A stretch of DNA of 64,000 nucleotides. Source: Candidatus Eiseniibacteriota bacterium. Lineage in GTDB: Bacteria > Eisenbacteria > RBG-16-71-46 > CAIMUX01 > VGJL01. Made by a program: the position numbers and the translations under genes. Position 1 is the first letter of the stretch; the number at the start of each line of letters is the position of its first letter. Shown in pieces: positions 573 to 28,732 of the stretch. The stretch covers positions 266,548 to 330,547 of the forward strand of contig CAWBWI010000004.1 in NCBI GenBank assembly GCA_963792585.1. Reading direction: 5' to 3'. The notes under the pieces are model-generated. The model worked only from the letters and a program-made list of their open reading frames with translations. It ran no database searches and was not told the DNA's origin.

Positions 573-3500
573 TCATTTGGTCAGAACCAGTCGTCCCGTC
601 GTGGTCCCCCGTGCGGTCACAACCCGGGCAAAGTAGACCCCTGTCGGTACCTCTCGCCCGTTGTCATCTCGCCCGTTCCATTGGGTCGAGAAGGAACCGG
701 CCGGCCGCTCACCGTCCGCTAGCTGCCGCACGAGTGCTCCGGCCGCATTGAATATCTCCAGGGAGATAGCCGTCGCTGCAGGCAGGCGGTACAGGATCGA
801 GACTGCTCCGGAGCTTGGACTCGGAGCCACAGAGAGAGTCAGCGACTCCACGTTCTGAGAGGTCCCATCAACAGTGGAATTCGGGCATAGGTTGGATTGG
901 CAATCGGTTCCGTCTCCCAGGTAGATGCCTGGAGGTTCGCACCATTCCTGGGTTGTGAAGGTGCATGCACCGTCCTCGTGGCAGCAAGCACCGCCGGCCA
1001 AACGAATCAAGCCCAGGATGCCGCCACCTCCCGCGATGGCGAAGAAGTCGGAATTGGGTTCCGGTATGTTACAATGGCCGCTGTCGTTGTACCCCCAAGC
1101 TACGATGGATCCATCGGCCCTGAGCCCCAGACTGTGCATCGCGCCTGCCGCGACATCGACGAAGTCGGTGTATCCCGGAACATTGCACTGGCCTTGGTGG
1201 TTGCCCCCCCAGGCGACGATCTTCCCGTCGCTCTTGAGCCCCAGGTTGTGTTCGCCGCCTGCCGCAACGGCGACGAAACCGGTGTTGGGTGCTGGAACAT
1301 CACACTGGCCGCTGGTGTTGAGCCCCCACGCCACGACGGAGCCGTTACCCTTGAGGCCCAGGCTGTGCCAGTAGCCTGCCGCAACGGCGACGAAACCGGT
1401 GTTGGGTGCAGGAACATTGCACTGGCCGCGGTCGTTTCGCTCCCACGCGACGATCGACCCGTCAGTCTTGATGCCAAGGCTATGCCAGCGCCCAGCTGTG
1501 ACGGCAATGAAACCCGTGTTTGGTTCCGGTACATTGCACTGGCCGTAGTAGTTCCACCCCCAGGCCACGATGGCCCCGTCGGCCTTGAGCCCCAGGCTGT
1601 TGTCGTCGCCTGCCGCGATGGCTACGAAGTCGGTGTTGGGGTCCGGTACGCTGCATTGGCCGAACTGGTCGTCTCCCCAGGCCGCGATGGAGCCGTCGGC
1701 CTTGAGTCCAAGGTTGTGCACGTATCCACCCGCGACGGCGACGAAGCCCGTGTTGGGTGCAGGTGCATTGCACTGGCCGTAGCCGTTGTCCCCCCACATC
1801 ACGATGGAGCCGTAGGCCTTGAGTCCTAGGCTGTGGTTGGGTCCGGCCGCGACAGCGACGAAGCCAGTGTTGGGTGCCGGTAAGGTGCACTGGCCGGAGC
1901 CGTTGTCCCCCCACGCCACGATGGAGCCATCGGCCTTGAGACCCAGGCTGTGCGCCTGCGCTGGCTCAATGCGTCCTCCTGCAGCTACGGCGACGAAGCC
2001 GGTGTTGGGTACCGGTACGTCACACTGGCCGTCCTCGTTGCTCCCCCATGCCACGATGGAGCCGTCGGCTTTGAGCCCTAGGCTGTGCAAGTAGCCTGCC
2101 GCAACGGCGACGAAACCGGTGTTGGGTGCAGGAACATTGCACTGACCGCCCTCGTTCCACCCCCATGCCACGATGGAGCCGTCGGCCTTGAGGCCAAGGT
2201 TGTGATAGACGCCCGCCGCGATCGCCACGAAATCGGCATTGGGCAAGGGAACCTGATCGGTGGGCCCCCACGCCAGGATCGTCCCGTCGGCCTTGAGGCC
2301 TAGGCTGTGATTGCCGCCCGCCGCAACGGCGACGAAGTCGGCATTGGGTACAGGAACATTGCATTCATCATTGTAGTTGACTCCCCATGCCACAATCGAG
2401 CTGTCGGCCTTAAGGCCAAGGCTGTGGCCGGCGCCTGCCGCGACAGCGACGAAGTCTGCGTTGGGTGCCGGAACATTACACTGGCCGACAAGGTTGCGCC
2501 CCCACGCCAGGATCGAGCCGTCCGCCTTGAGGCCAAGGCTGTGCACCGCACCCGCGGCGATGGCGACGAGATCCTCAAGCGCGGTGGGTTCTACAACAAC
2601 CATGTTGCCCCATCCCACGATGGTGCCACCGGGCGGCTGAGGACATGGATTCGGAAGGCAGGCCGTTCCCACACCCATCCAGACGTTCTGAGGAGCGCAC
2701 AGGTACTCGGCCACGATCATGCACTGTCCGGTTGCTGGACTACAGCATGCACCCGGTGAGCAGGTTTCCGGTCCGCAAGTGCTGGGGTACCCTTGTGGAT
2801 TCCCACCTTCGGAGCGGCAAGTGCTCTCGGTGACGAACTCACAGTGCCCGTCCGGGAAGCAGCATGCCATCGAGGGTTGGGAACACGGGTTGGGGTCGCA
2901 GCTCGCGCCCATGCCCGACGATCCCCCTCCTTCATCACAGGCAGCCAGAGACAATTGCTCGCAGTGCCCATCGGGGAAGCAGCAGGCCATCGGAACGGAT
3001 GGACAGGGATTCGGGTCGCATGAGCTCCCGGGCCCCTGAAAGGACCCACCGAGCTGGTTACAGTCAGCGTGCATCAAGACCTCGCAGTGCAAGTCCGCGA
3101 AGCAGCACGCACCGGGAACCGGAGGGGTTCTGTAGAATCTTTGACTCACGTCCAGGGCTACTCCGAACACCTCCCCACTAGTAGTCCAGTCCGGGTACGA
3201 GAAGTATGCGGAACGAAACGTAGCCTGGTGGCCAGTTACCTGTCCCGCTGCTACGCGCCCCCATTGCGGTGGGAATACATGGTCGCACGCTTGAACTGAG
3301 AACCAGTATGTTCCCTCTCCGATGTTGGCCGCCACGGCCGCATGGTACTCGTAGACTGGTCCATAGAGGCCCTGACCTACATCAATCACCTCCGTCGGGG
3401 TGGATTCGAGATACTCATCCACGATGGAACCCGGAACGCCTCCAGCGTCAGCGTAGAACCGCAAGTTGAATGCAGTGACGTTGGGTTCGCCAGCTCCGTT

Positions 3501-3809
3501 GTAGTACTCCCCCCACCAGACAGCTTCATAGATGACCGTCGACGACGAGGAGTAGAAGTCGTTTGCGATTTCGGTCTCGAGCCCATACATGGCAATGATC
3601 TCTGATGTCAGCGGTTCTCCGTTGAGATCCGGAGGCTCGTCCCACCATCCGTCCCTGTCCCCGAGCAACACCGCCGGGGGGCCGCTCGCGCGATGAGGGG
3701 TCCCAAGCGTCGGCGAGCCAGCAATTCCAATTCCTTGGCAGAGCAGCAGGAACATCAAACAGAGACTCAAACAAAGGTATCCGATCCGCAACGACCCTTG
3801 GTCTTTCAT
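573..3809 (-). CDS. Secreted modular protein: conserved N-terminal domain, 5 Cys-rich modules, 14 RCC1-like repeats, FlgD-Ig/T9SS-like CTD (1078 aa)
   Basis: Intact ORF with signal peptide; repeats IVAWGxNxxGQCxVPAPNTGFVAVAAGxxHSLGLK; C-terminal IFNAAG..WNGRDDNG..TGVYF. Confidence 0.93.
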   Translation of the reverse strand: MKDQGSLRIGYLCLSLCLMFLLLCQGIGIAGSPTLGTPHRASGPPAVLLGDRDGWWDEPPDLNGEPLTSEIIAMYGLETEIANDFYSSSSTVIYEAVWWGEYYNGAGEPNVTAFNLRFYADAGGVPGSIVDEYLESTPTEVIDVGQGLYGPVYEYHAAVAANIGEGTYWFSVQACDHVFPPQWGRVAAGQVTGHQATFRSAYFSYPDWTTSGEVFGVALDVSQRFYRTPPVPGACCFADLHCEVLMHADCNQLGGSFQGPGSSCDPNPCPSVPMACCFPDGHCEQLSLAACDEGGGSSGMGASCDPNPCSQPSMACCFPDGHCEFVTESTCRSEGGNPQGYPSTCGPETCSPGACCSPATGQCMIVAEYLCAPQNVWMGVGTACLPNPCPQPPGGTIVGWGNMVVVEPTALEDLVAIAAGAVHSLGLKADGSILAWGRNLVGQCNVPAPNADFVAVAAGAGHSLGLKADSSIVAWGVNYNDECNVPVPNADFVAVAAGGNHSLGLKADGTILAWGPTDQVPLPNADFVAIAAGVYHNLGLKADGSIVAWGWNEGGQCNVPAPNTGFVAVAAGYLHSLGLKADGSIVAWGSNEDGQCDVPVPNTGFVAVAAGGRIEPAQAHSLGLKADGSIVAWGDNGSGQCTLPAPNTGFVAVAAGPNHSLGLKAYGSIVMWGDNGYGQCNAPAPNTGFVAVAGGYVHNLGLKADGSIAAWGDDQFGQCSVPDPNTDFVAIAAGDDNSLGLKADGAIVAWGWNYYGQCNVPEPNTGFIAVTAGRWHSLGIKTDGSIVAWERNDRGQCNVPAPNTGFVAVAAGYWHSLGLKGNGSVVAWGLNTSGQCDVPAPNTGFVAVAAGGEHNLGLKSDGKIVAWGGNHQGQCNVPGYTDFVDVAAGAMHSLGLRADGSIVAWGYNDSGHCNIPEPNSDFFAIAGGGGILGLIRLAGGACCHEDGACTFTTQEWCEPPGIYLGDGTDCQSNLCPNSTVDGTSQNVESLTLSVAPSPSSGAVSILYRLPAATAISLEIFNAAGALVRQLADGERPAGSFSTQWNGRDDNGREVPTGVYFARVVTARGTTTGRLVLTK

Positions 3810-3903
3810 CTGGCGGCCCCTTTCCCTTTGTACCAGCTCGGTTCCCGCTCAGTTGCAGAGCGTCAAACGCTCATCCAATGCTTTGACCTGGCCTCGTTCC
3901 TGT

Positions 3904-6900
3904 TCAACGCAGCACGATCAGACGGCTCGATTGCACCTCTCCCCCCATGCGAAGCCGGCAAACATAAACGCCTGAGGGGAGGATTCGTCCGGCGTCGTCG
4001 TTGCGCTTCCAGATCATCTGATGAACTCCGGCCGAATACGGCATTCGCGAAGCGAGTCGCCGGACGCAGCGGCCACTAACGTCATAGATGGCCAGATCGA
4101 TCACTGCTTCCTTCGCGAGGCCAAACGCGATCGCCGTCTCGTTGGCGAAGGGGTTGGGTCTCCCGGGCATCAGTCCCATCGTCACCTGGGCCATGGGATC
4201 CTCAGTCCCCGTGGCGGGACAACCGAGACCGAGCGCTCCGATCAAGAGATCGCATGGGCTATTCCAGGGCAAACACGGGGAACCGGACAAGAGGGTGTAA
4301 TCCCCTCCGGGAGGGGGCGCGTCACATGGTTCTGGAGCACAGAACCTGGGATCCGAGAACACCTGCGGGCCGAGGTAGGTGATGCTGCCGCTCGCTCCCA
4401 ATCGATCAAGCGCGCAGCAGGTCATCGTTAGGTTCGAACCAATCACTTCGTGGCCCAGTGGGTTGCTTGGGTTCGTGTTCCCCCAAAGGATGGTCCGGCT
4501 CACCTGCGTGTCGGTTCCGTCCAGCCCCCCCGTCCCATTCTCGTTGTCCGAGCAGTTGCTGCTGATGGTGCAGCTGATAATGCTCGAACTCGCGACCTCA
4601 ATCCCCCTGCCAATGTTGCCCGTGATGACACAGTCGTTGACTTGGAGATTGCTTCCCCGGATCCCACCCGGGCTGCCGCGGTTACCGCTGACCGCGCAAC
4701 CTGCGATCGTCAGGCTGTCCCCCACGACTCCACCGACGTCACCGTGATTGTCGGCGATCACGCAATCCCGAATCGTCGTATTGGAGCCGGCGTGCACTCC
4801 TCCCGCACCCATACCCCCGCTGTTGCCTCGAATGTCGCAACCCGCGATGACTCCCGCCGCGCAGTAGATCCCACCACCGTAAAGCGCATGGTTGGAGTCG
4901 ATGGTGCATCCGGAGATATCTCCGTTATAGCAGGCGATGCCACCCCCGATTGCACTTGCATTTGAGTACACGTAGTTGCCGGTGACAATGCAGTTCCGCA
5001 TCGTCAGAATCGACGATTCGTCGCTATAGATCCCCGCCCCGCCAAATCCTGCTGGATATCTGCTGCTTCCCACGGTGCAGTCCGAGATCGTGCAGTCGGT
5101 CAGGAGAGGAGAAGCCGAAGCGCTGCAGTGGACGCCTGCACCCCGACCCCAGTGGTCGATTTGGAAGTTGATGATCTTGCAGCCCTTGATCCACGGCGAG
5201 GATGACAAGATGTGGATTCCGCCACCCCCGAACTCCGAGTATCCGCCGGATAGCGTTACCGCTTCGAGCACGGCCCGATTGTCTTCCCCGGAATCGAAGG
5301 TGAATCCGCCTGCTCCGCCGCATCCGATGACGCACTGGTCGGGGTCCCTGCTCTGCGAGCGAATCGTCACCAGCCGCCCGTGATAGTCAATCTGGCGATT
5401 GCCCGGCCCCGTGAAGGGCGTGCCGATCAGTTCGATCACGTCCCCGTTCGCGAGGTCCGTGTAGTCGATCGCCGCCTGAATCGTCGGGAAATACGGGGGC
5501 GATTCTCCACTCCCGTCGGAGCGGACATAGTAGACCGAGCCGCCGGGTGGCTGGGCGCACGGGTTCGGAGCGCAGGGCGTACCCACCCCCATCCAGACCT
5601 TGGGCAGTATGCACTGCTCCTCAGTCAGCATCGTGCAGCGTCCCGTTGTCGGGTTGCAGCACGCGCCATGGGGGCCAGTCAGCCCCAGGCCGTGCCAAGC
5701 CTCTGCCGCAATGGCCACGAAGCCGTTGTTGGGTTCCGGAACATTGCACTGGCCGTTGGCGTTGTCCCCCCACGCTACGATGGAGCCATCCGCCTTGAGG
5801 CCCAAACTGTGGTTACTCCCTGCCGCGACAGCGACGAAGCCGGTGTTTGGCGCCGGTACGTCGCGCTGGCCATCGGAGTTGCTCCCCCATGCAACGATGG
5901 TGCCGTTGGCCAGAAGTCCCAGACCGTGACTGGTCCCTGCCGCGACAGCGACGAAGCCGATGTTGGGTGCAGGAACATCGCACTGGCCTCCGGAGTTGCT
6001 CCCCCATGCCACGATGGAGCCATTCGCCTTGAGGCCCAGGCTGTGGTGGTGCCCTGCAGCAACTGCGACGAAATCGGCGTTCGGCGCGGGGACGTCGCAC
6101 TGGCCGGAGGAGCTGCTCCCCCATGCCACAATGGAGCCGTCTGTCTTGAGCCCTAGGCTGTGGCTTGCGCCTCCCGCGACAGCGACATAGCCGATGTTGG
6201 GTGCAGGGACATCGCACTGACCGTAGCTGTTATACCCCCATGCAACGATCGAGCCGTCCGTCTTGAGCCCGAGGCTGTGAGTGGTCCCTGCCGCGACGGC
6301 GACAAAACCGGTGTTGGGCGCCGGCACATCGCACTGGCCGTATTGGTTATTGCCCCCCCACGCCACGATTGAGCCGTTAGCTTTCAAACCAAGACTGTGG
6401 TTATCTCCTCCGGCGACCGCGACAAACCCGAGGTTGGGTTCCGGCACGTCGCTGCCGAACTCCCACAACACGATCGACCCGCTGGGCGGCTGAGGGCATG
6501 GATTCGGAAAGCAGACTGTTCCCTCACCCATCCAGACGCCGGGGGCCGTGCACTGCTCCTCGGCCATCACCATGCAGTTTCCCGTTACTGGACTGCAGCA
6601 TGCGCCAAACTGTGGGCAGAGTGATTCGTCACAGGTGGTCGGATACCCGAGTGGAATCCCGCCTTCGAATATGCAGGTCTGTTCCGTGGTGAACTCACAG
6701 TGTCCGTCCAAAAGCAGCATGCCATCGAGGGTTGCGGACAGGTGTTCGGGTCGCAGTTGATACTGACGCCCGACGATCCCCCTCCTTCATCACAGGCAGC
6801 CTGAGACAATGGTTCGCAGTGCCCATCGGGGAAGCAGCATGCCATTGGAACGAACGGGCAAGGGTTCGGGTCACAGGTGGTCTCGGGCCCCTGCCACACC

Positions 6901-14370: not shown

Positions 14371-17300
14371 TCAGTTGATCCGTATCACTCCCCTCCTCCA
14401 GCACTTCTCCCCAGCACTCAGGCGCAGGAAATACACACCCGGGGCGACCTGACCTCCGCCTGATCCTCGGCCATCCCACGCGAGGGAGTGCGTCCCTGCA
14501 GCCACTACCCCAAGATCCAGGGTTCGAATCGTCCGACCGGCGGCATCAAAGACATCCAGACGCGCCGGCCCCGCATTCGATAGGCGATACCATAGTACCG
14601 CTGAGGTCGAGGATGGGTTTGGAACCACGCCAAGGATTCCCTCCCCGCCTACTGCAGCGATGGCAGGAATGCCTGACACCGGACACGGATTCGGATCACA
14701 GGTCGTCCATTCAGGATGCCAGACATTGGGGGCAACGCAGGCCGCCTGAGTGGTCATGGCGCATGTCTCTGCTACCGGATTGCAGCAGGCGCCGACCTGC
14801 GGACAGGGGTTCGGGGTGCAGGTCGCCCACTCCCCGTGCCAGACGTTTGGAGCAACACACTCAAGCGACGTCGTCATTGTACAGGCTCCGGTTGTCGGGT
14901 TACAGCACGCACCCTGTGGCTGTGGACAGGGATTCGGCGCACAAGTCGTCCACTCCCCGTGCCATACATTCGGAGCGACACACTCAGGTGGCGTTGTGAC
15001 TGTGCACACCCCAGTCGTCGGGCTACAGCACGCGCCTTGTGGCTGTGGACACGGGTTCGGCGCACAGGTCGTCCATTCCCCGTGCCAGACGTAGCCGCAG
15101 TTCGCCTGGGTCGTAACCGTACATGTGCCCGTGGCCGGATTGCAGCAGGCCCCAACCGCGGGGACCAAACCCAGACTGCGATAGGCGCCCGCCGCGACCG
15201 CTACGAAGCCGGCGTTCGGTGTGGGGACATGGGACTCGCCGTAGTAGTTCGTCCCCCATGCCACGATCCTTCCATCGGCCTTGAGACCCAGACTGTGACG
15301 AAACCCCGCAGTGACTGCGATGAAGCTGGTATTAGGCTCCGGAACGTTACACTCACCGGAACCGTTGTACCCCCAAGCGATGATCGAGCCATCGGATTTC
15401 AGGCCCAAACTGTGATACTGACCCCCAGCGACCGCTACGAAGCCGGTGTTCGGCGCGGGGACGTAGCACTGGCCAAACCAGTCGAGACCCCATGCCACGA
15501 TCGTCCCGTTGGACTTCAGGCCCAGACTGTGATAGTTGCCCGCCGCAACTGCCACGAATCCGGCGTTTGGCGCGGGGACGTAGCACTCGCCGCTGAAGTT
15601 GTTGCCCCATGCCACGATCGTCCCGTTGGACTTCAGGCCCAGACTTTGACTGGTGCCCGCTGCGACCGCCACGAAGTCGGCGTTCAACGCGGGGACGTTG
15701 CACTGGCCGTAGTCGTTGAGCCCCCACGCCACGATGGACCCATCGGCTTTGAGAGCCAAGCTGTGAGCCCCTCCCCCCGCGATCGCTACGAAGTCCGCGT
15801 TCGGCGCGGGGACGTTGCACTGGCCGTAGTCGTTGAGCCCCCATGCCACGATCGTCCCGTCGGACTTGAGACCAAGACTGTGCTCATTGCATCCATTGAT
15901 CGCCACGAAGTCGGCGTTGGGCGCCGGCACATCGCACCCGCCGTTGTCGTTCTTCCCCCATGCCACGATCGAGCTGCCGCCTGGTTGAGGACATGGATTC
16001 GGAAGACAGGACGTTCCCGGACCCATCCAGACGCTGGGGAACGTGCATAGATTCTCGGTCACCACTAGGCAATTCCCCGTCACGGGATTGCAGCAGCCGC
16101 CGGGTGGACAGGGGCTTGGGTCGCAGCTCGTCGTTCCGCCCCATCCTCCCCCTCCTTCGGCGCAGGTTGCCTGAGGTAGTTGCTCGCAGTGTCCATCGGG
16201 GAAGCAGCAGGCCATCGGAGTGGACGGGCAGGGATTCGGGTCACAAGTGCTTGGGTATCCGAGCGGAACCCCTCCTTCGGAGAGGCAAACGCGTTCCGTG
16301 ACGAACTCACAGTGCTCGTCCGGGAAACAGCAGGCCGACGACTCCGGAAGCGTGATCGACCAGTCGAGCGTGAAGTCCGCGCCCGCGTCTGGGCCGGTGG
16401 CGTCGGCGATCAGGTAGTAGGTCCCGGCGGCTCCCACCGTCCATGTGAACGTCTCCGGCTCCGGATTGTCCGCGCCGACCACACAACTGGCCATATCACC
16501 GCAATCGGAGAGGATGTAGATGGATCCATCATATGCTGGAGTCGCATAGACGACGTGGACGATGTCGCCGACGACCACGTTCAGTATGTACACGAGATCC
16601 CTGCCGTGTGCAGAGTTGCCGGTGCAACCGTTCGTCGGGTTGTAATCGTTGAACGCGCCCGCCAGGTTCGCGGCGATCGAGCCGCTGCCGTAGCGGGGCA
16701 ACTCGATCGCACCCGAGCACAAGTCGTTCGGCGGTCGCGCGCATGGATTTGGGTTACAGCTCGTATCGATGCCCGATGATCCCCCTCCTTCATCACAGGC
16801 AGCCTGGAGACAATTGCTCGCAACGCCCATCGGGAAAGCAGCAGGCCATCGGAAGCGACGGGCAGGGATTCGGGTCACAAGTGCTCCCGGGTCCCTGGTA
16901 TGCCCCCCCGAGTTGGGAGCAGTCCACAGGCATGAGGGACTCGCAATGCAAATCGGCAAAGCAGCACGCTCCGGGAACCGGAGGAGTTGTATAGAACCGC
17001 TGACTGGCGTCAAAAGGGACGCCAATGAGATCCTCAATCCGAATCCAGTCCGGGTACCCGTAGGCTTCGGAACGAAACGTAGATTGATAGCCGGTCACCT
17101 GCCCCGCCGCGAGATGAAACCAACTCGGCGGGATCGCATGGTCGCACGCTTGGGCCGAGAACCAGTATGACCCTACCCCAATATCCGCCGACACGGATGC
17201 GTGATACTCGTAGACTCTTGCGCCCTCGGGGCCCTGGCCTACATCGATCGTCCACGTCGGGGTGGATTCGAGATACTCGGCCACGATGGAACCCGGAACA

Positions 17301-22140: not shown

Positions 22141-22409
22141 CCCGCCGCGACTCCATCTTTCGGACCAGGAGTCGACGGAGCATCGGACCTTGCCAACATG
22201 AGGACGAAAGAAGCTCCCATACAAGCCAGCCATGGCGAATCCCCCGTTCGTAATTGCACCTGTGGAATGATCCGCTGTTGTGACCGGGAAGTATCCTACG
22301 CTTCTCCGAGCCCACAAGCAATGTGGACTCTACGGCGGGTGATGTACGAGGTTGTGTGCCAGGCCGGTCTCAGGAAGTGCTTGAGACGGGCGGGAGATAG
22401 CTCCGTGTA

Positions 22410-22517
22410 CCGCGCCCCGGCCCCATGCCGCCCTGTCCCGCTCGCATCCGCGTTCACCACGAGATCGCAGTTTCGTGAAGCGTCCTCAGCGGGCATCGCT
22501 CATGACGGGAGCGTCCC
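22410..22517. repeat. Intergenic repeat family, copy D (left part)
   Basis: GCGTTCACCACGAG..GCAGTTTCGTGAAGCG..CAGCGGGCA.CGCTCATG matches 14006-14060. Confidence 0.8.
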
Positions 22518-22592
22518 GCACACATGCCACGCCAGATTCGCGAGTCTTGTCCCTCTGCGGCCAAGTTTTTCCGCGACCATCTCGATCGTGCA

Positions 22593-23325
22593 TTACCGAA
22601 ACAGCGACTTCACCTCACCCCAGGTCGTGTTCTTTACCGGCGTCGATTCGCATGGATTCGGATCGCACGGAATCCCGTCGCCCACGTACGCCCCTCCGGC
22701 CACTTCGCAATCCTCCACGGTTCCCTCCAGGCAAGCACCCGATGGGAAGCAGCAGGCTCCAGTTCCGGTACTGGTGACTGACACGGCATCGAGCGCCAGT
22801 CCTTGCCCGAAATGGGGACTCCAGACGTGTGTGAACTGCAGCGTGGTCAGTTGGGAATCCGCCGTGAACCGCCTGGCGTAGGTCAGGTAGTTCATGTTGT
22901 CGCGCGTCGATCCGGAATGCGTGAGGGTCGTGTCGACCAGGTGTTGTGGTGCCCAGCACCTGCACCCTGCCGGTGGCCGTAGACGCATCTATGTTGTTCG
23001 CATATGCAAACGAGAGTGAGTACGCTTGCCCGGGTACGGTCGCGAAGGACTGCAGAATCGTGGTTCCGATGCCACTGTCACCGTCCAGATCGATCGACTG
23101 CGAGCCCTGGAAGGCAGGCCAGTAATCACGGACCAGATCGATGGTCCAGCCATCCGGGATCGTCCAGCCTGTGATGAAGTCGCCCGTTACGTCGACGAAA
23201 TCCGTGCCAGCGGGTAACGGTGGCAGTTCAAACCCGCCGTTCACGATCTGCTCTGCCATGGCCGTGGTCGCGCCGCCCAGGATGATGATGACCGCGACCA
23301 TCCACGAACAAGACCTGTTCATCAT
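22593..23325 (-). CDS. Secreted DUF642/choice-of-anchor-C-like protein, Cys-rich module, TTWGEVKSLFR; frameshift near 22945
   Basis: IVNGGFE, GSQSIDLDG, QSFATVPGQAYSLSF; continues in ORF 22593-22988. Confidence 0.82.
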
Positions 23326-23358
23326 GTTGAGTCTCCCCTCTCGCGCGGGGCACTCCGC

Positions 23359-24135
23359 CTAACGGTAGATCGCCTTGACCCGCCCCCAAGTGGTGGTCTC
23401 AATGGGTGTCGACTCGCAGGGGTTGGGATCACAGGGAACCTCGTCGCCCAGGTAGGTTCCTCCCGCCCCCTCGCAGCCCGCCTCCGTCCCCAGCAGGCAA
23501 TCGCCGGAGGCGAAGCAACACGCGCCGACCGGAGGCTCGGTGGTCTCCAGTACGAAGTCGATCTGGGTGCTGTCGTAGTAGAAGGAGATGGGGCTCACCG
23601 CGCATTCCACCGTGGATCCCGCGTGCACGGAAATCGTCCCGCTGTAGTCCGCCGTCGTGCCGAGCCCATCGAGCGTCGCCTCGTAGAGCTCTATACCGTC
23701 GGCGAGGATGAATACAATCTTCGAGCCGATGTCGATGGACAGAAAGTGTGCGGTCACCGTCACACTGTCAGCGCTCGGCGCCGTCCACCGAACCACGCTC
23801 TGCTGAGCGGGCCCAGGATGAAAGAGGGCCTTATGCGGCTGGATGACAAAGGTCTGGCAGGTGATCGGGTAGTCGTGGGGGTTCCGGATCACATTGGGGC
23901 ACCAGACCTCGAAGTACTTCACCCACGGTTCGAGATCGGGACAGAAGTAGTTGTGGTCGGTGTAGAGAGTCAGCGGCTCTTCCGCGGAGGGCCGCCACCC
24001 GTACGACCACGCCCCGTTCGGGTTCTGAGTTGCCGAGAAGTCATCGGCCAGGTTCCAGACTTCTCCCTGACTCACGACCGGGCACAGCAGCAGGAGCGTG
24101 CACACCACGCCCGCGATTCGCATCTTCATGGTCAT
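23359..24135 (-). CDS. Secreted protein with Cys-rich module and TTWGRVKAIYR (258 aa)
   Basis: GAGGAG RBS; signal peptide; DFSATQNPNGAWSYG. Confidence 0.88.
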   Translation of the reverse strand: MTMKMRIAGVVCTLLLLCPVVSQGEVWNLADDFSATQNPNGAWSYGWRPSAEEPLTLYTDHNYFCPDLEPWVKYFEVWCPNVIRNPHDYPITCQTFVIQPHKALFHPGPAQQSVVRWTAPSADSVTVTAHFLSIDIGSKIVFILADGIELYEATLDGLGTTADYSGTISVHAGSTVECAVSPISFYYDSTQIDFVLETTEPPVGACCFASGDCLLGTEAGCEGAGGTYLGDEVPCDPNPCESTPIETTTWGRVKAIYR

Positions 24136-24221
24136 TTTCTCCTCTGAAATACGACGGCATTCCTCGACGAACGGGAGTGGGGGTGGTCGCAAGTCGAATG
24201 AGGCGGAGTATGGAATGTGGC

Positions 24222-24778
24222 TGCCCTTCGGACCTCTCGGCGGAGGGGCTTCCCACGAGCACGCTGTGGACTTACGGCCTGCATACTCGGCTCCAGAACC
24301 TCGATCCCGTGTGCACCGGAGTGGCGCTCATCGTCGCGGTCGGGCGGCGAAGGCGTCTGGAGAAGTCGCAACGAGGGTACCGCCATCACGGCTGAGACTC
24401 CAGCGGCATTTGCTGGGCGTTCACCGAGAGGCGGCGCAGCACTACCGGTCAGAAAGCGGTCCTTGTTGCTGCGGTAGCGGTTACGAGGATCACCAGCGAG
24501 GCTGGTCGGAAACCGTATCGAGCGGTACCGCTCATGCCGAGAGCGTCCACCACATCGTCGGAGAGAACCGAGAGGAAGAGAGTTTCGCCCCCTCGCGCCC
24601 CAATTCGTGACGGTTCACACCGCTCGCGCTCGATACACTTCGCAAACAGAGAATCCGCACCGCCGAATTCACCCCCGCAACACGCAAGCGTTTCTGCGGA
24701 TATAGACGAGCCTTGGCGGCATGCACCACCGAGGCTCCGTCCACCGCTCTGATCACGCGCAGGTCATGCAGCGCGGCC
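24222..24778. repeat. Second repeat segment (24222-24425) and intergenic repeat copy E (24520-24778)
   Basis: Matches 12335-12540 and 14050-14270 respectively. Confidence 0.85.
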
Positions 24779-26950
24779 TTATCTTCAAGAGCACGACTCG
24801 CGCGGTCCTCGTCCCCGCGTTCGTCGAAACGCGTGCCAGATAGATCCCCGGCACGACCTCGCGGCCCGCATCGTCACGTCCATCCCAGACCACGTCGTGA
24901 ACGCCGACGCTCATGATCTCGTCCTGTAAACATCGTACCAAGCGCCCCGCAACATCGTGGATGGTCGTCCGCACGGAGCCTGCGGTCGGCAACTCGAAGC
25001 GAATCGCCGCCTGCCGCCACGCCGGATTCGGGACCGTACGCAGACGAAACGTCGCGGCGATGTCCGTGTTCTCGGCGTTTCCTACCGGCTCGCACTGGAC
25101 CGGCAGAATCTGGAGACCGGAATCGTAGTCTGCGACGTAGGCGTGGGTGCCCGAGACGGCCACGCCACGGGCACTCCCCGGCGTGTCCACGCTGCCCACG
25201 ATCTGCGGGCTCGCGGGATTCGTGATGTCGATCACCTGGAGACCGGGATCCCAGTCCGCGACGTAGGCGTAGGTGCCCGAGACGGCCACGCCATAGGCAG
25301 TCGTCCGGCGTGTTCACGCTGCCCACGATCTGGGGGCTCGCGGGATTCGTGATGTCGATCACCTGGAGACCGGATCCACTGTCCGCGACGTAGGCGTGGG
25401 TGCCCGAGACGGCCACGACCATAGGCAGTCCCCGGCGTGTCCACGCTGCCCACGATCTGGGGGCTCGCGGGATTCGTGATGTCGATCACCTGGAGACCGG
25501 AATACCTATCCGCGACGTAGGCGTGGGTGCCCGAGACGGCCACACCATGGGCATCGCCCGGCGTGTCCACGCTGCCCACGATCTGTGGGCTCGCGGGATT
25601 CGTGATGTCGATCACCTGGAGACCGGAATCGTACGTCCGCGACGTAGGCGTAGGTGCCCGAGACGGCCACACCATAGGCACTCCCCGGCGTGTCCACGCT
25701 GCCCACGATCTGGGGGCTCGCGGGATTCGCGATGTCGATCACCTGGAGACCGGACGTCCGCCGTCCGCGACGTAGGCGTGGGTGCCCGAGACGGCCACGC
25801 CATGACGCGCACTCCGGCGTGTCCACGCTGCCCACGATCTGAGGGCTCGCGGGATTCGTGATGTCGATCACCTGGAGACCGGAATCCCCGTCCGCGACGT
25901 AGGCGTGAGTGCCCGAGACGGCCACGCCTTGGGCACGTCCCGGCGTGTCCACGCTGCCCACGATCTGGGGCTCGGGGATTCGTGATGTCGATCACCGAAG
26001 ACCGGATGCTCAGTCCGCGACGTAGGCATAGGTGCCCGAGACGGCCACGCCCACGGCACGTCCGTGTCCACGCTGCCCACGATCTGGGGCTCTGGGATTG
26101 TGATGTCGATCACCTGGAGACCGGAATCCGTCCGCGACGTAGGCGTAGGTGCCCCGAGACGGCCACGCCAACGGCAGTCGCCCGGCGTGTCCACGCTGCC
26201 CACGATCTGGGGGCTCGCGGGATTCGTGATGTCGATCACCTGGAGACCGGACTACCCAGTCCGCGACGTAGGCGTAGGTGCCCGAGACGGCCACGCCCAT
26301 GGCATAGCCCGGCGTGTCCACGCTGCCCACGATCTGGGGGCTCGCGGGATTCGTGATGTCGATCACCTGGAGACCGGACGCGCCGTCCGCGACGTAGGCG
26401 TAGGTGCCCGAGACGGCCACGTCCATAGGCATCGCCCGGCGTGTCCACGCTGCCCACGATCTGGGGGCTCGCCGGATTCGTGATGTCGATCACCTGGAGA
26501 CCGGACTCGGCCGTCCGCGACGTAGGCGTAGGTGCCCGAGACGGCAACGTCCATAGGCATCGCCCGGCGTGTCCACGCTGCCCACGATCTGGGGGCTCGT
26601 CGGGATTCGTGATGTCGATCACCTGGAGACCGGAGCTGCCGTCCGCGACGTAGGCGTAGCTGCCCGAGACGGCCACGCCCAAGGCATCGCCCGGCGTGTC
26701 CACGCTGCCCACGATCTGGGGGCTCGCGGGATTCGTGATGTCGATCACCTGGAGACCGGAGCCCCAGCCGTCGGCGACGTAGGCGTGGGTGCCCGAGACG
26801 GCCACGTCCATAAGCCCAAGTCCCGGCGTGATCCACGCTGCCCACCCAGTGGAGGTAGTCTCCGTAGTCGATGCACTCAGCAGAGGCAGGGCACGAAACT
26901 ACGAGCACCCCAAGGAATGCCAGACCGATGACAACCACGGGAACTCTCAT
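24753..26950 (-). CDS. Secreted LVIVD-repeat beta-propeller protein, 14 units, FlgD-Ig CTD; many indels (true stop probably 24779)
   Basis: Signal peptide [10 protein letters not shown]; unit [42 protein letters not shown] with ~126-bp period. Confidence 0.9.
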
Positions 26951-27074
26951 GGCCAGTCCCTCCCTTCGATCTGCCACCGAAAGCACAGTCAATTCAGCAC
27001 GGAGAGATGCGGCGGGATGAGTTTAGGGGATCCTGACGCTCGGATCCATGGCGGATTTCGTAAACCCTTGCTCT

Positions 27075-27392
27075 GCACGCCACGCTCGCGTGAGCATCCA
27101 CCAGGAGAACTCAGTTTCGTATGCGGTTCGCTGTGGGGTTCGCTCATGTTGAGAGCGTCCACCACCGGGGGGATAGAGAATGGAGAGGCGAGAGTTCCGC
27201 CCCATTTTCGGCCCGTGCGTTCACCACTTCCGCGGACGCCAATCACGCAGAGAGCACGCCCCCGGGACCCGCCCGCGCAACACCCTCGCATTTCTGCGGA
27301 TACAACGCACCTTTTCGGCATCGTCGCACCGACGCTCCGCTCACCACTCTCCGCCGCTAAGTTCGTACCCTGCATCGTCCGGCTCCCCGCTC
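27075..27392. repeat. Intergenic repeat family, copy F (complete; closest to copy A)
   Basis: Core motifs at 27094, 27155, 27217, ~27276 and 27337. Confidence 0.85.
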
Positions 27393-27898
27393 CTACCGCG
27401 AACCAGCACACCAGCGGTTGACGCCCCACGCCCCCATCCATATGACGAGGCGAGCCATCTCACCCGATCGAATTCCGCGCCCCGCTCGCGGCATCCCTCT
27501 CGCGCCGGCTCACCAACCGGCCGCCCCGAGCGGCCTTCCCGCCACTCGCACGCCGCCCACAACCCCATCCGGCGTGCTCGGCATTCTTCGCCCGTGACCT
27601 CACGATCCTTCTGCAGGGATTTTCGGGTTACGGCCGTAACCGGTCGCACGCGGGTCCAAGTGCATCAAGTTGAGGTTCGATTTTGCGGCCGGATCCGCCA
27701 GCCCCGTCGGCAGGAGCCATCAACTTCGAGAATCGTGAAGTTGGGTCGACAGGTTACGCGTCAGAAACGATCTGCATGCGCCCGCGGGTGGGATTCCGAA
27801 CAATTAGAGAGGGATCCGGCCCGCCGGACCTCACATTTCCCCGTGCAGACCTGGCCCTACCCGCCAAACAGGCGGTGCACCACCCCGTCGACCTAGCC

Positions 27899-28732
27899 TC
27901 ACCGCTCCGGATGCGCGCGCAGCGTCATCAGCGACTTCCACGTTTCCTTCTCGAGGAAGCTGCCGGCCACGTTTCCCTCCATCTCCTCGTACATCGCCAG
28001 CGGCACTGTGAAGGTCATCATGTCGGGATCGATCAGGTGGGCGACGTTTCGCCTCGCCGAGATGTCGAAAAGTCCCATCACGGCGCGGGGGTGATCCCGC
28101 TCCGACTCGCTGTAGGAGAGGATGCCGACGGCATGGCAGCCGGCGCCGAAGGGCGCGATCACGTTGTCGTTCGTCGGCCGTCCGTAATTGGCCAGGACGA
28201 CGAGCGCCGAGAGCTGGTCGGGGTTGGCCAGGAAACTTATCGTCACCGGCCGCTCGCCATCCCCATTGATCTGCTCCAGCGGCTTGAAGACCACATAACG
28301 CGCGGGGATGTCCCGCATTGGGAGGGAATCCACGAAGGTCTTGGCCACTTCCGGGGATCGAAAGTACCCCTCCCCTTCGAGGAAGCTCTCGCGGGCCTGC
28401 GGGCTCATTCTCCCTTCCAAGGTCGCCGCGACGGTTCGGCCCCCTTCATCGAGCGCGTTTCCGCTCGAGAGGAACCGATAGAAGCAATCGATCCCACCGG
28501 GCGTTTCTGCGTAAACGTCGCCGAACCCGACCCCGACGCCCCCGCCGCGGCAGCCCATCGCCTCGCGCGAAAGCGCGGTGGTCCTCCCCAGCGCGGCCTG
28601 CACGAACATGACGATTGCGCATCCCCACTTCCCCGGCGTGAATTGACGCGCATCCGGCGGCTTCTCGTCGGCCCAGAGCAAAGCCACCGGCTGGTACTTG
28701 AGGCCCAGCGCCTCCCGAATCCGACTCTTCAT
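27899..28732 (-). CDS. DUF169 family protein
   Basis: LGLKYQPVA, GCRGGGVGVGFG, ANPDQLSAL, APFGAGC, GLFDISAR. Confidence 0.8.
   Translation of the reverse strand: MKSRIREALGLKYQPVALLWADEKPPDARQFTPGKWGCAIVMFVQAALGRTTALSREAMGCRGGGVGVGFGDVYAETPGGIDCFYRFLSSGNALDEGGRTVAATLEGRMSPQARESFLEGEGYFRSPEVAKTFVDSLPMRDIPARYVVFKPLEQINGDGERPVTISFLANPDQLSALVVLANYGRPTNDNVIAPFGAGCHAVGILSYSESERDHPRAVMGLFDISARRNVAHLIDPDMMTFTVPLAMYEEMEGNVAGSFLEKETWKSLMTLRAHPER

Follow-up and report, generated by a model that had tools for sequence, protein, structure and literature searches.

The locus and its product

Within the window, by which we mean the whole stretch of 64,000 nucleotides analysed here, lies a frameshifted gene on the minus strand that encodes LVIVD repeats and an FlgD-Ig domain and whose translation runs from an ATG at 26950 to a TGA (Table 1). 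The N-terminus, as read from the translation, is hydrophobic, 24 aa long, and ends in PASA. The LVIVD repeats score 77 and 47 bits against PF08309 (cut-off 20.2), with unit-by-unit matches, and the C-terminal tail scores 39.6 bits against FlgD_ig (PF13860; cut-off 27). A profile search of the gene returned these two domains only, with no match to the Por_Secre_tail model and no NACHT/STAND ATPase or effector domain. The signal peptide and the C-terminal domain are in frame, and the array between them is out of frame. A promoter scan found no promoter, and Rfam gave no match over 22300-27900.

Table 1. Features of the LVIVD/FlgD-Ig gene and its flanks (window coordinates)
Feature	Position	Strand	Basis or remark
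5' flank and ribosome-binding site GGAGGG directly before the ATG	26951-27117	-	common to the C1 paralog
Start codon and likely Sec signal peptide, about 24 aa, judged by eye	26879-26950	-	translation; identical peptide in the intact paralog
Mature N-terminus (10 residues) and partial blade unit 0	26758-26878	-	N-terminus family-typical in homologues; has indels
13 full LVIVD units, nominally 126 bp (42 aa)	25119-26757	-	PF08309; boundaries; indels in 10 of 13; L014 model
Variable loop A, example: codons 22-27, variable at 24 and 26	25164-25182 (unit 13); 26677-26695 (unit 1)	-	
Variable loop B, example: codons 40-42, variable at 40 and 41	25119-25127 (unit 13); 26632-26640 (unit 1)	-	
Units 6-7, worst-damaged stretch, 10 bases short (lengths 119 and 123)	25881-26122	-	putative junction of two propellers
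Last strand, linker, C-terminal FlgD-Ig domain and stop TGA at 24753-24755	24753-25118	-	PF13860, E 5e-10
Repeated intergenic element, copy 3' of the stop	24520-24752	-	second copy upstream at about 27140-27350

The FlgD-Ig domain is likely a type IX secretion sorting domain. Because a profile search of the genome found SprA_N and three PorV matches above cut-off, together with at least 150 FlgD_ig domains (150 of 150 scored candidates match), the protein likely leaves the cell through Sec and a type IX-like system. It would then be a putative surface or secreted binding protein.

Around the gene lie IS remnants and further genes for secreted proteins with an FlgD tail. The repeated intergenic element on either side of it is at least 240 bp long and has 15 matches in the genome by nhmmer, 13 of them (C1, C4) beyond the pair in the window. 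It often lies directly after the stop of secreted FlgD-tail genes, beside IS-like ends, has no Rfam match, and may be a non-autonomous derivative of an IS that aids the movement of these genes. Elsewhere in the window are a DUF642-like secreted gene (22593-23325) with a single frameshift near 22980 and three secreted RCC1-repeat genes (573-6720 and 14371-17037), in frame and built of 117-bp units with 71-74% matches, which together with IS remnants make up a cluster of genes for secreted propellers.

A uniform but damaged unit array

TRF places the array at 25110-26845, with a period of 127, 13.7 copies, 89% matches and 4% indels. All 14 GLQ anchors listed in the initial annotation lie within 2 nt of the positions given there; they mark 13 full units and a partial one at the N-terminus, the last anchor leading on into the C-terminal domain. 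Unit 0, the 13 units and the last strand would together give 14 blades, or two 7-bladed propellers.

Whole units have a pairwise identity of 92.4%. With indel-hit codons masked, scaffold identity is 97.4% (pS 0.059, pN 0.015), and codons 24, 26, 40 and 41 are saturated (pN 0.60, pS 0.65). The near-invariant 126-bp units described at the outset are thus present in the assembled sequence, but they carry indels in 10 of 13 cases and their uniformity is probably not the organism's true sequence. There are 23 indel regions, of which 14 touch the two loops, which account for 21% of the unit, and several loop indels spell two alleles consecutively. Since only 6 of 13 units have a readable loop A and 7 of 13 a readable loop B, several of the residue pairs first quoted for the hypervariable codons are guesses, although the four codons themselves are indeed variable.

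Two further ideas about the array were dropped. A DNA hairpin as the cause of conservation gave z values of -0.79, -0.99 and -2.61 in the 3 of 13 units that were folded, with no consistent signal. The idea that indels single out hypervariable loci failed because a frame model gives 1819 shifts genome-wide with core genes on top, a count that includes gene junctions and false calls, from a model that caught only 4 in the array.

An in-register paralog

A close paralog lies at G000:C1:1899862-1900950 (L010:14863-15978), G000 being the source genome. It is intact, has 7 units and the same 5' flank and signal peptide, and stops just before an IS without the C-terminal domain. It also holds an internal duplication of 113+44 bp, which bears out the initial suggestion of unit exchange at the level of the family. 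The 5' flank of the window gene is 94.7% identical to C1:1900949-1901115 over 169 nt, and the 240 nt at 26846-27085 agree with the paralog in 236 of 242 columns (97.5%).

Window units 1-7 are in register with paralog units 1-7 (permutation p 0.00035) and have rare loop alleles in common with them. At the 81 scaffold sites where the paralog has a private base, the window carries the consensus base in 67, the paralog's base in 3 and another base in 1, with the remaining 10 near an indel. Units 6-7 are where the paralog is most divergent and the window most damaged, and remnants of the paralog's units persist there. Scaffold indels were not significantly associated with paralog-differing sites (Fisher p 0.061; 6/9, permutation p 0.093). 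The paralog's units are 95% alike to those of the window, yet they are neither frameshifted nor flattened; one possible explanation is that reads common to the twin genes were assigned to the paralog and the window copy was left exposed. As a comparator for units 8-13, the gene L015 of another genome (G019) gave no clear register (best offset -2, mean 3.8).

The LVIVD family in Eisenbacteria

LVIVD repeats were first described in PMC2447325. The source genome has 12 LVIVD genes, and the 11 besides the window gene have open frames of 375-1106 aa. Array DNA has matches in 36 of 41 related genomes, and a search with the homologue L014 returned 4886 proteins at E<=1e-50 among 8000 scored candidates. 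The RpoB of a same-family relative clusters with a protein labelled Candidatus Eisenbacteria.

The C-terminal domain of the window gene is 84% identical in amino acids and 89.9% in nucleotides to that of L015, whose genome belongs to another family (housekeeping genes 69-72% identical, rpoB 79%). Because of this excess over the housekeeping genes, and of a 68-bp exact match that joins the window array to G010, the gene family likely moves horizontally among Eisenbacteria. In addition, units from different Eisenbacteria families (L014, L015, L018, L028, L030, L035 and the paralog) scatter round a single DNA consensus, and rare codons are common to the family: GGT occurs at codon 1 in 54% against 11% expected, and T at codon 9 in 75% against 23%. 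This common consensus, including its rare codons, suggests that the gene family has spread recently, by horizontal movement.

Among 30 intact arrays measured, the highest internal identity is 88.3%. A degenerate 56-letter scaffold pattern matched 0 metagenome loci, and a 32-base pattern matched 4 loci in genomes and 4 in metagenomes, none of them by inspection as uniform as the window array. A literature search on LVIVD, repetitive propellers, Eisenbacteria and bacterial surface-repeat evolution showed nothing on the variable loops of the family among the papers listed.

Variable loops and predicted fold

Since the frame of the window gene is broken, the structure was predicted for the intact homologue L014 (658 aa, 14-sequence alignment). 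In the model (pLDDT 86.3, pTM 0.60), four strands recur every 42 residues, and Foldseek returned double propellers, with PorZ (PDB 5M11) on top at E 1.1e-21. Together with the PF08309 matches, these results support the LVIVD double-propeller architecture originally proposed. In the model, the d-a loop and the start of strand a carry codons 24 and 26, and the b-c turn carries codons 40-41; the WD40 R1 hotspot has likewise been located at the start of strand a (PMC3419727). From propeller topology and the secondary structure of this intact homologue, we infer that the four variable residues form the top, ligand-binding face, which supports the initial claim that they lie on one face.

Across 251 units of 30 arrays, the same four codons have the highest entropy (3.7-4.0 bits), and in 28 of 30 arrays three or more of them rank within the top six for variability. 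The 30 arrays include the source genome's own C6 paralog and the partial duplicate L050, which repeats part of L015; arrays in which fewer than 5 units could be cut cleanly, L017 and L021 for example, were left out. The four variable loop codons are a family-wide trait that extends beyond the window gene. In the most uniform intact arrays, loop pN is two- to three-fold scaffold pS, at 0.51 against 0.16 in L018, 0.62 against 0.24 in L014 and 0.59 against 0.30 in L028. This fits faster change in the loops with some conversion of the scaffold, as a comparison of rates and not a formal selection test. In the per-site check proposed at the outset, entropy thus peaks at the four codons; within the loop codons of the window gene pN/pS is about 0.9, so positive selection is not shown.

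Origin of the variable codons

A diversity-generating retroelement (DGR) that mutates template adenines to write the four variable codons as NNT seems to us exceedingly improbable. The T-endings that suggested it are confirmed at codon 24, in 6 of 6 readable units, but not at codon 26, in only 3 of 6. Codon 26 includes TTG, ATG and CAA, and T at codon 24 also occurs in 7 of 7 paralog units and is enriched family-wide (36% against 11% expected). In addition, 16 of 17 scaffold adenines are invariant, so that targeted mutagenesis as initially envisaged finds no backing. The search for a reverse transcriptase and a template with adenines at the variable sites came back empty in the genome: its only RVT_1 match is a fragment with motifs that we take to be group II intron-like, BLAST gave coding paralogs only and no template copy, two strict A-rich patterns had 0 matches, and a loose one had 4, all outside LVIVD genes. 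G010, which has the most uniform intact array, is also without an RT match. As the source genome is only 84% complete, a detail that leaves some room for the idea, the absence of a DGR is not proven. Codon context was tried as another source of the T-endings and rejected; since genome rates before GC are 5-37%, which is too low, inheritance explains them better. Two RT fragments that are presumably group II intron-like lie at C3 about 572400-572800, just upstream of the C3 propeller gene, and at C6:91765-92064.

Origin of the uniform scaffold

We propose that the true array is probably moderately diverged and that its near-identical scaffold arose as an artefact of majority voting during consensus polishing. 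The consensus of the window units differs from that of genes in other genomes at 2 of 99 scaffold sites, both of them polymorphic, and single window units stand 1-3 bases from the consensus of the other genomes. By comparison, 0 of 243 natural units come within 4 bases of the consensus (minimum 5, median 21), and most relatives' units have a window unit as their nearest neighbour. The concentration of indels in the loops and the 88.3% maximum among intact arrays point the same way. The initial annotation saw a homogenised scaffold and itself named polishing as what would overturn that view; with units this close to the consensus and most of the paralog-private bases replaced by it, polishing is most likely what happened.

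The contrary view, to which we give a minor share of belief, is that the uniform scaffold is real: short-tract gene conversion would have followed duplication from a paralog-like ancestor, the diverse loop codons would have been kept by selection, as in the het-d/het-e WD40 arrays of Podospora, and the indels would be local assembly noise. Units are indeed copied within the family, both in the paralog and in L018 (a 99 bp internal repeat), and propellers with 14 near-identical blades have been described (PMC9218822). In the intact L018, L014 and L028, loop pN is higher than scaffold pS, and the C1 paralog was not flattened. Adjacent window units resemble each other slightly more than units further apart do (rho -0.21, p 0.043), a weak effect of the kind that local exchange would give. 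However, real amplifications carry fixed bases, as described in PMC9218822 and as seen in the L022 array, which has its own consensus, 79% identical to that of the window, and the window has no private fixed bases against the family consensus except at the two polymorphic positions. Starting from natural arrays of the highest uniformity, conversion by drift should leave about 8-16 private bases fixed (Poisson P(<=2) 0.011 or less). About 67 scaffold changes would also be needed in 7 units while the 5' region diverged by 2.5%, and the loop pN/pS near 0.9 lends this view no help.

Against it, too, stands the demonstrable merging of alleles in this assembly, which affects rpoB as well. Over 3.5 kb, the rpoB region (C3:1191500-1195000) has 24 indels that break the frame, of which 19 are insertions, and 21 of 29 inserted columns adjoin a column that is polymorphic among three relatives (background 0.44, p 0.002). 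A less conserved control, glgC, has only 1 inserted column. Private bases in rpoB are only modestly reduced, at 93 against 102-165, a point against the artefact.

These merges imply mixed reads and could also stem from strains: the window array might be a column-wise consensus of three or more co-occurring strain haplotypes with shuffled units, in which case its uniformity would still be an artefact. We rate this lower again, as rather improbable. It would accommodate a signal peptide and C-terminal domain in frame on either side of an array that is not, and a possible natural case exists in an LVIVD gene of 12-14 units (L073:2194-3570), whose flanks match those of L031 without a mismatch (2194 and 1800 nt) and which differs from it in unit 1 and in unit number. 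That difference is either real exchange or unreliable array assembly, and may itself be a short-read assembly error. Moreover, several haplotypes would be required to erase 83% of the private bases, and without reads such a mixture is indistinguishable from a pile-up of foreign reads. Were it true, it would signal real and fast shuffling of units in the population.

For the polishing artefact that we favour, the course of events may have been as follows. Reads from many similar LVIVD units, belonging to the window gene, its paralogs and co-occurring relatives, would have piled onto the array. At scaffold sites such reads agree, so they would outvote the unit-specific bases and the family consensus would be written; at loop codons they disagree, and the original base would often survive, or two alleles would merge into a frameshifting insertion. 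A polisher at low depth can overwrite one repeat copy with another, as reported for a short-read polisher (10.1101/2024.03.07.584013), and mixed strains can yield inaccurate consensus genomes (PMC11552494). We modelled the vote in a toy simulation, a one-parameter plurality vote on the paralog units with a foreign pool taken from other genomes and not from the real sample. With 20-25% own reads, it gave a scaffold identity of 0.966-0.977, 1.5-2.0 differences per unit and 37-48% of loop codons kept, with ties mostly in the loops; the observed values are 0.974, 0-3 and 4 of 12 readable loop codons.

Because no run with the source reads turned up (the best of the 24 listed runs of the run index had 0.10 of the words), the artefact is inferred and not seen; small read-word shares of this kind carry no information on habitat. 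Four runs compared with the window showed only pieces of relatives, and in four runs compared with L073 that organism was absent. In favour of the artefact, such arrays attract foreign sequence: in run X17, foreign contigs on the array reached a summed depth of up to 97, against at most 3.5 in bins outside it, and the L073 flanks drew no foreign contigs in 4 of 4 runs. Counting against the artefact, three other arrays of the genome with 87-90% identity are in frame (C1:1862484-1864943, C3:550051-550985 and C6:84403-87465); they consist of cysteine-rich 120- and 117-bp units and of 342-bp units labelled by eye as Ig/FN3-like. The clean state of the paralog, the lack of a significant link between scaffold indels and paralog-differing sites, and the slight likeness of adjacent units also speak against it.

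A second frameshifted propeller array lies at G000:C3:570985-572256 (L061), with 147-bp units, 87% matches, 2% indels, and indels near variable positions. Its units have what we take to be an FG-GAP/VCBS-like motif, and its damage is probably the same polishing effect.

Discussion

What kind of system, then, does the window gene resemble? The closest are other LVIVD proteins (PF08309) with FlgD-Ig (PF13860), which have the same 42-aa repeat, signal peptide and C-terminal Ig domain, and from which the window gene shows no difference beyond its apparent DNA uniformity. Our search found no solved LVIVD structure, the nearest by profile being the designed SAKe6BC and the Methanosarcina surface layer protein 1L0Q. 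PorZ (PDB 5M11) is alike in its two propellers and Ig-like tail, but in fold only (13% identity), and is a non-repetitive component of the type IX secretion system, whereas the window protein is repetitive. The TALE-like architecture named in the initial annotation is a loose analogy: TAL effectors have helical DNA-binding repeats of 33-35 aa with one variable di-residue, and the window repeats are 42 aa long and all-beta.

A nearer parallel is offered by the HET-D/HET-E (HNWD) WD40 proteins of Podospora anserina, which likewise have 126-bp units, unit exchange and a double 7-bladed propeller, and whose array assemblies are known as unreliable (PMC1805685, 10.1101/2025.01.13.632504). Arrays of this highly conserved type have a true internal identity above 80-90%; the 97.4% of the window array is probably inflated, and intact homologues reach 88.3%. 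In HET-E, the selected codons are also four, paired at the d-a loop and the b-c turn (PMC1805685). However, HNWD proteins are cytoplasmic fungal NLRs with NACHT, and the window protein is likely secreted, bacterial, and without NACHT/STAND. In the HNWD accounts cited, concerted evolution and dN/dS>1 are shown; neither is shown for the window, where the gene-specific fixed bases of concerted evolution are absent and the uniform scaffold is probably artificial. The WRAP domain of Nostoc Npun_R6612 (PMC9218822) similarly has 14 nearly identical blades with few synonymous changes and frequent disrupted genes, but WRAP-type propellers carry propeller-specific fixed nucleotides, where the window units show the cross-genome family consensus; the main text of that paper makes no mention of LVIVD. 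By analogy, the window gene would work at most like a HET-E-type variable binding propeller, and it falls outside the HNWD, DGR and TALE groups.

There is a slim but real prospect that the array is genuine, as a type IX-secreted double propeller in which the DNA of the blades repeatedly reverts to a master unit common to the order while the four top-face codons are shuffled. If so, the fungal HET-E recognition repertoire would have a secreted counterpart in bacteria, the window gene would be the freshest master copy, and the master unit would have spread horizontally across Eisenbacteria families.

On the reading of a polishing artefact, the finding bears first on method. Since polishing of metagenome assemblies can produce a frozen scaffold with hypervariable codons, similar arrays should be checked in three ways: for private bases fixed against the family consensus, for paralogs in register, and for merged alleles in conserved genes. 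Single-base findings in conserved or multi-copy genes of the source genome call for caution, given its allele-merge frameshifts.

In terms of biology, the window gene itself adds little: it is one more member of a large secreted-propeller family, with loop variability that is expected at a binding face. For the family as a whole, our results show in part that it is expanded and mobile, occasionally copies units within a gene, and has its fastest change at four loop residues. That variation keeps to fixed positions, that units are copied and that genes pass between families of Eisenbacteria together suggests a repertoire of binding proteins.
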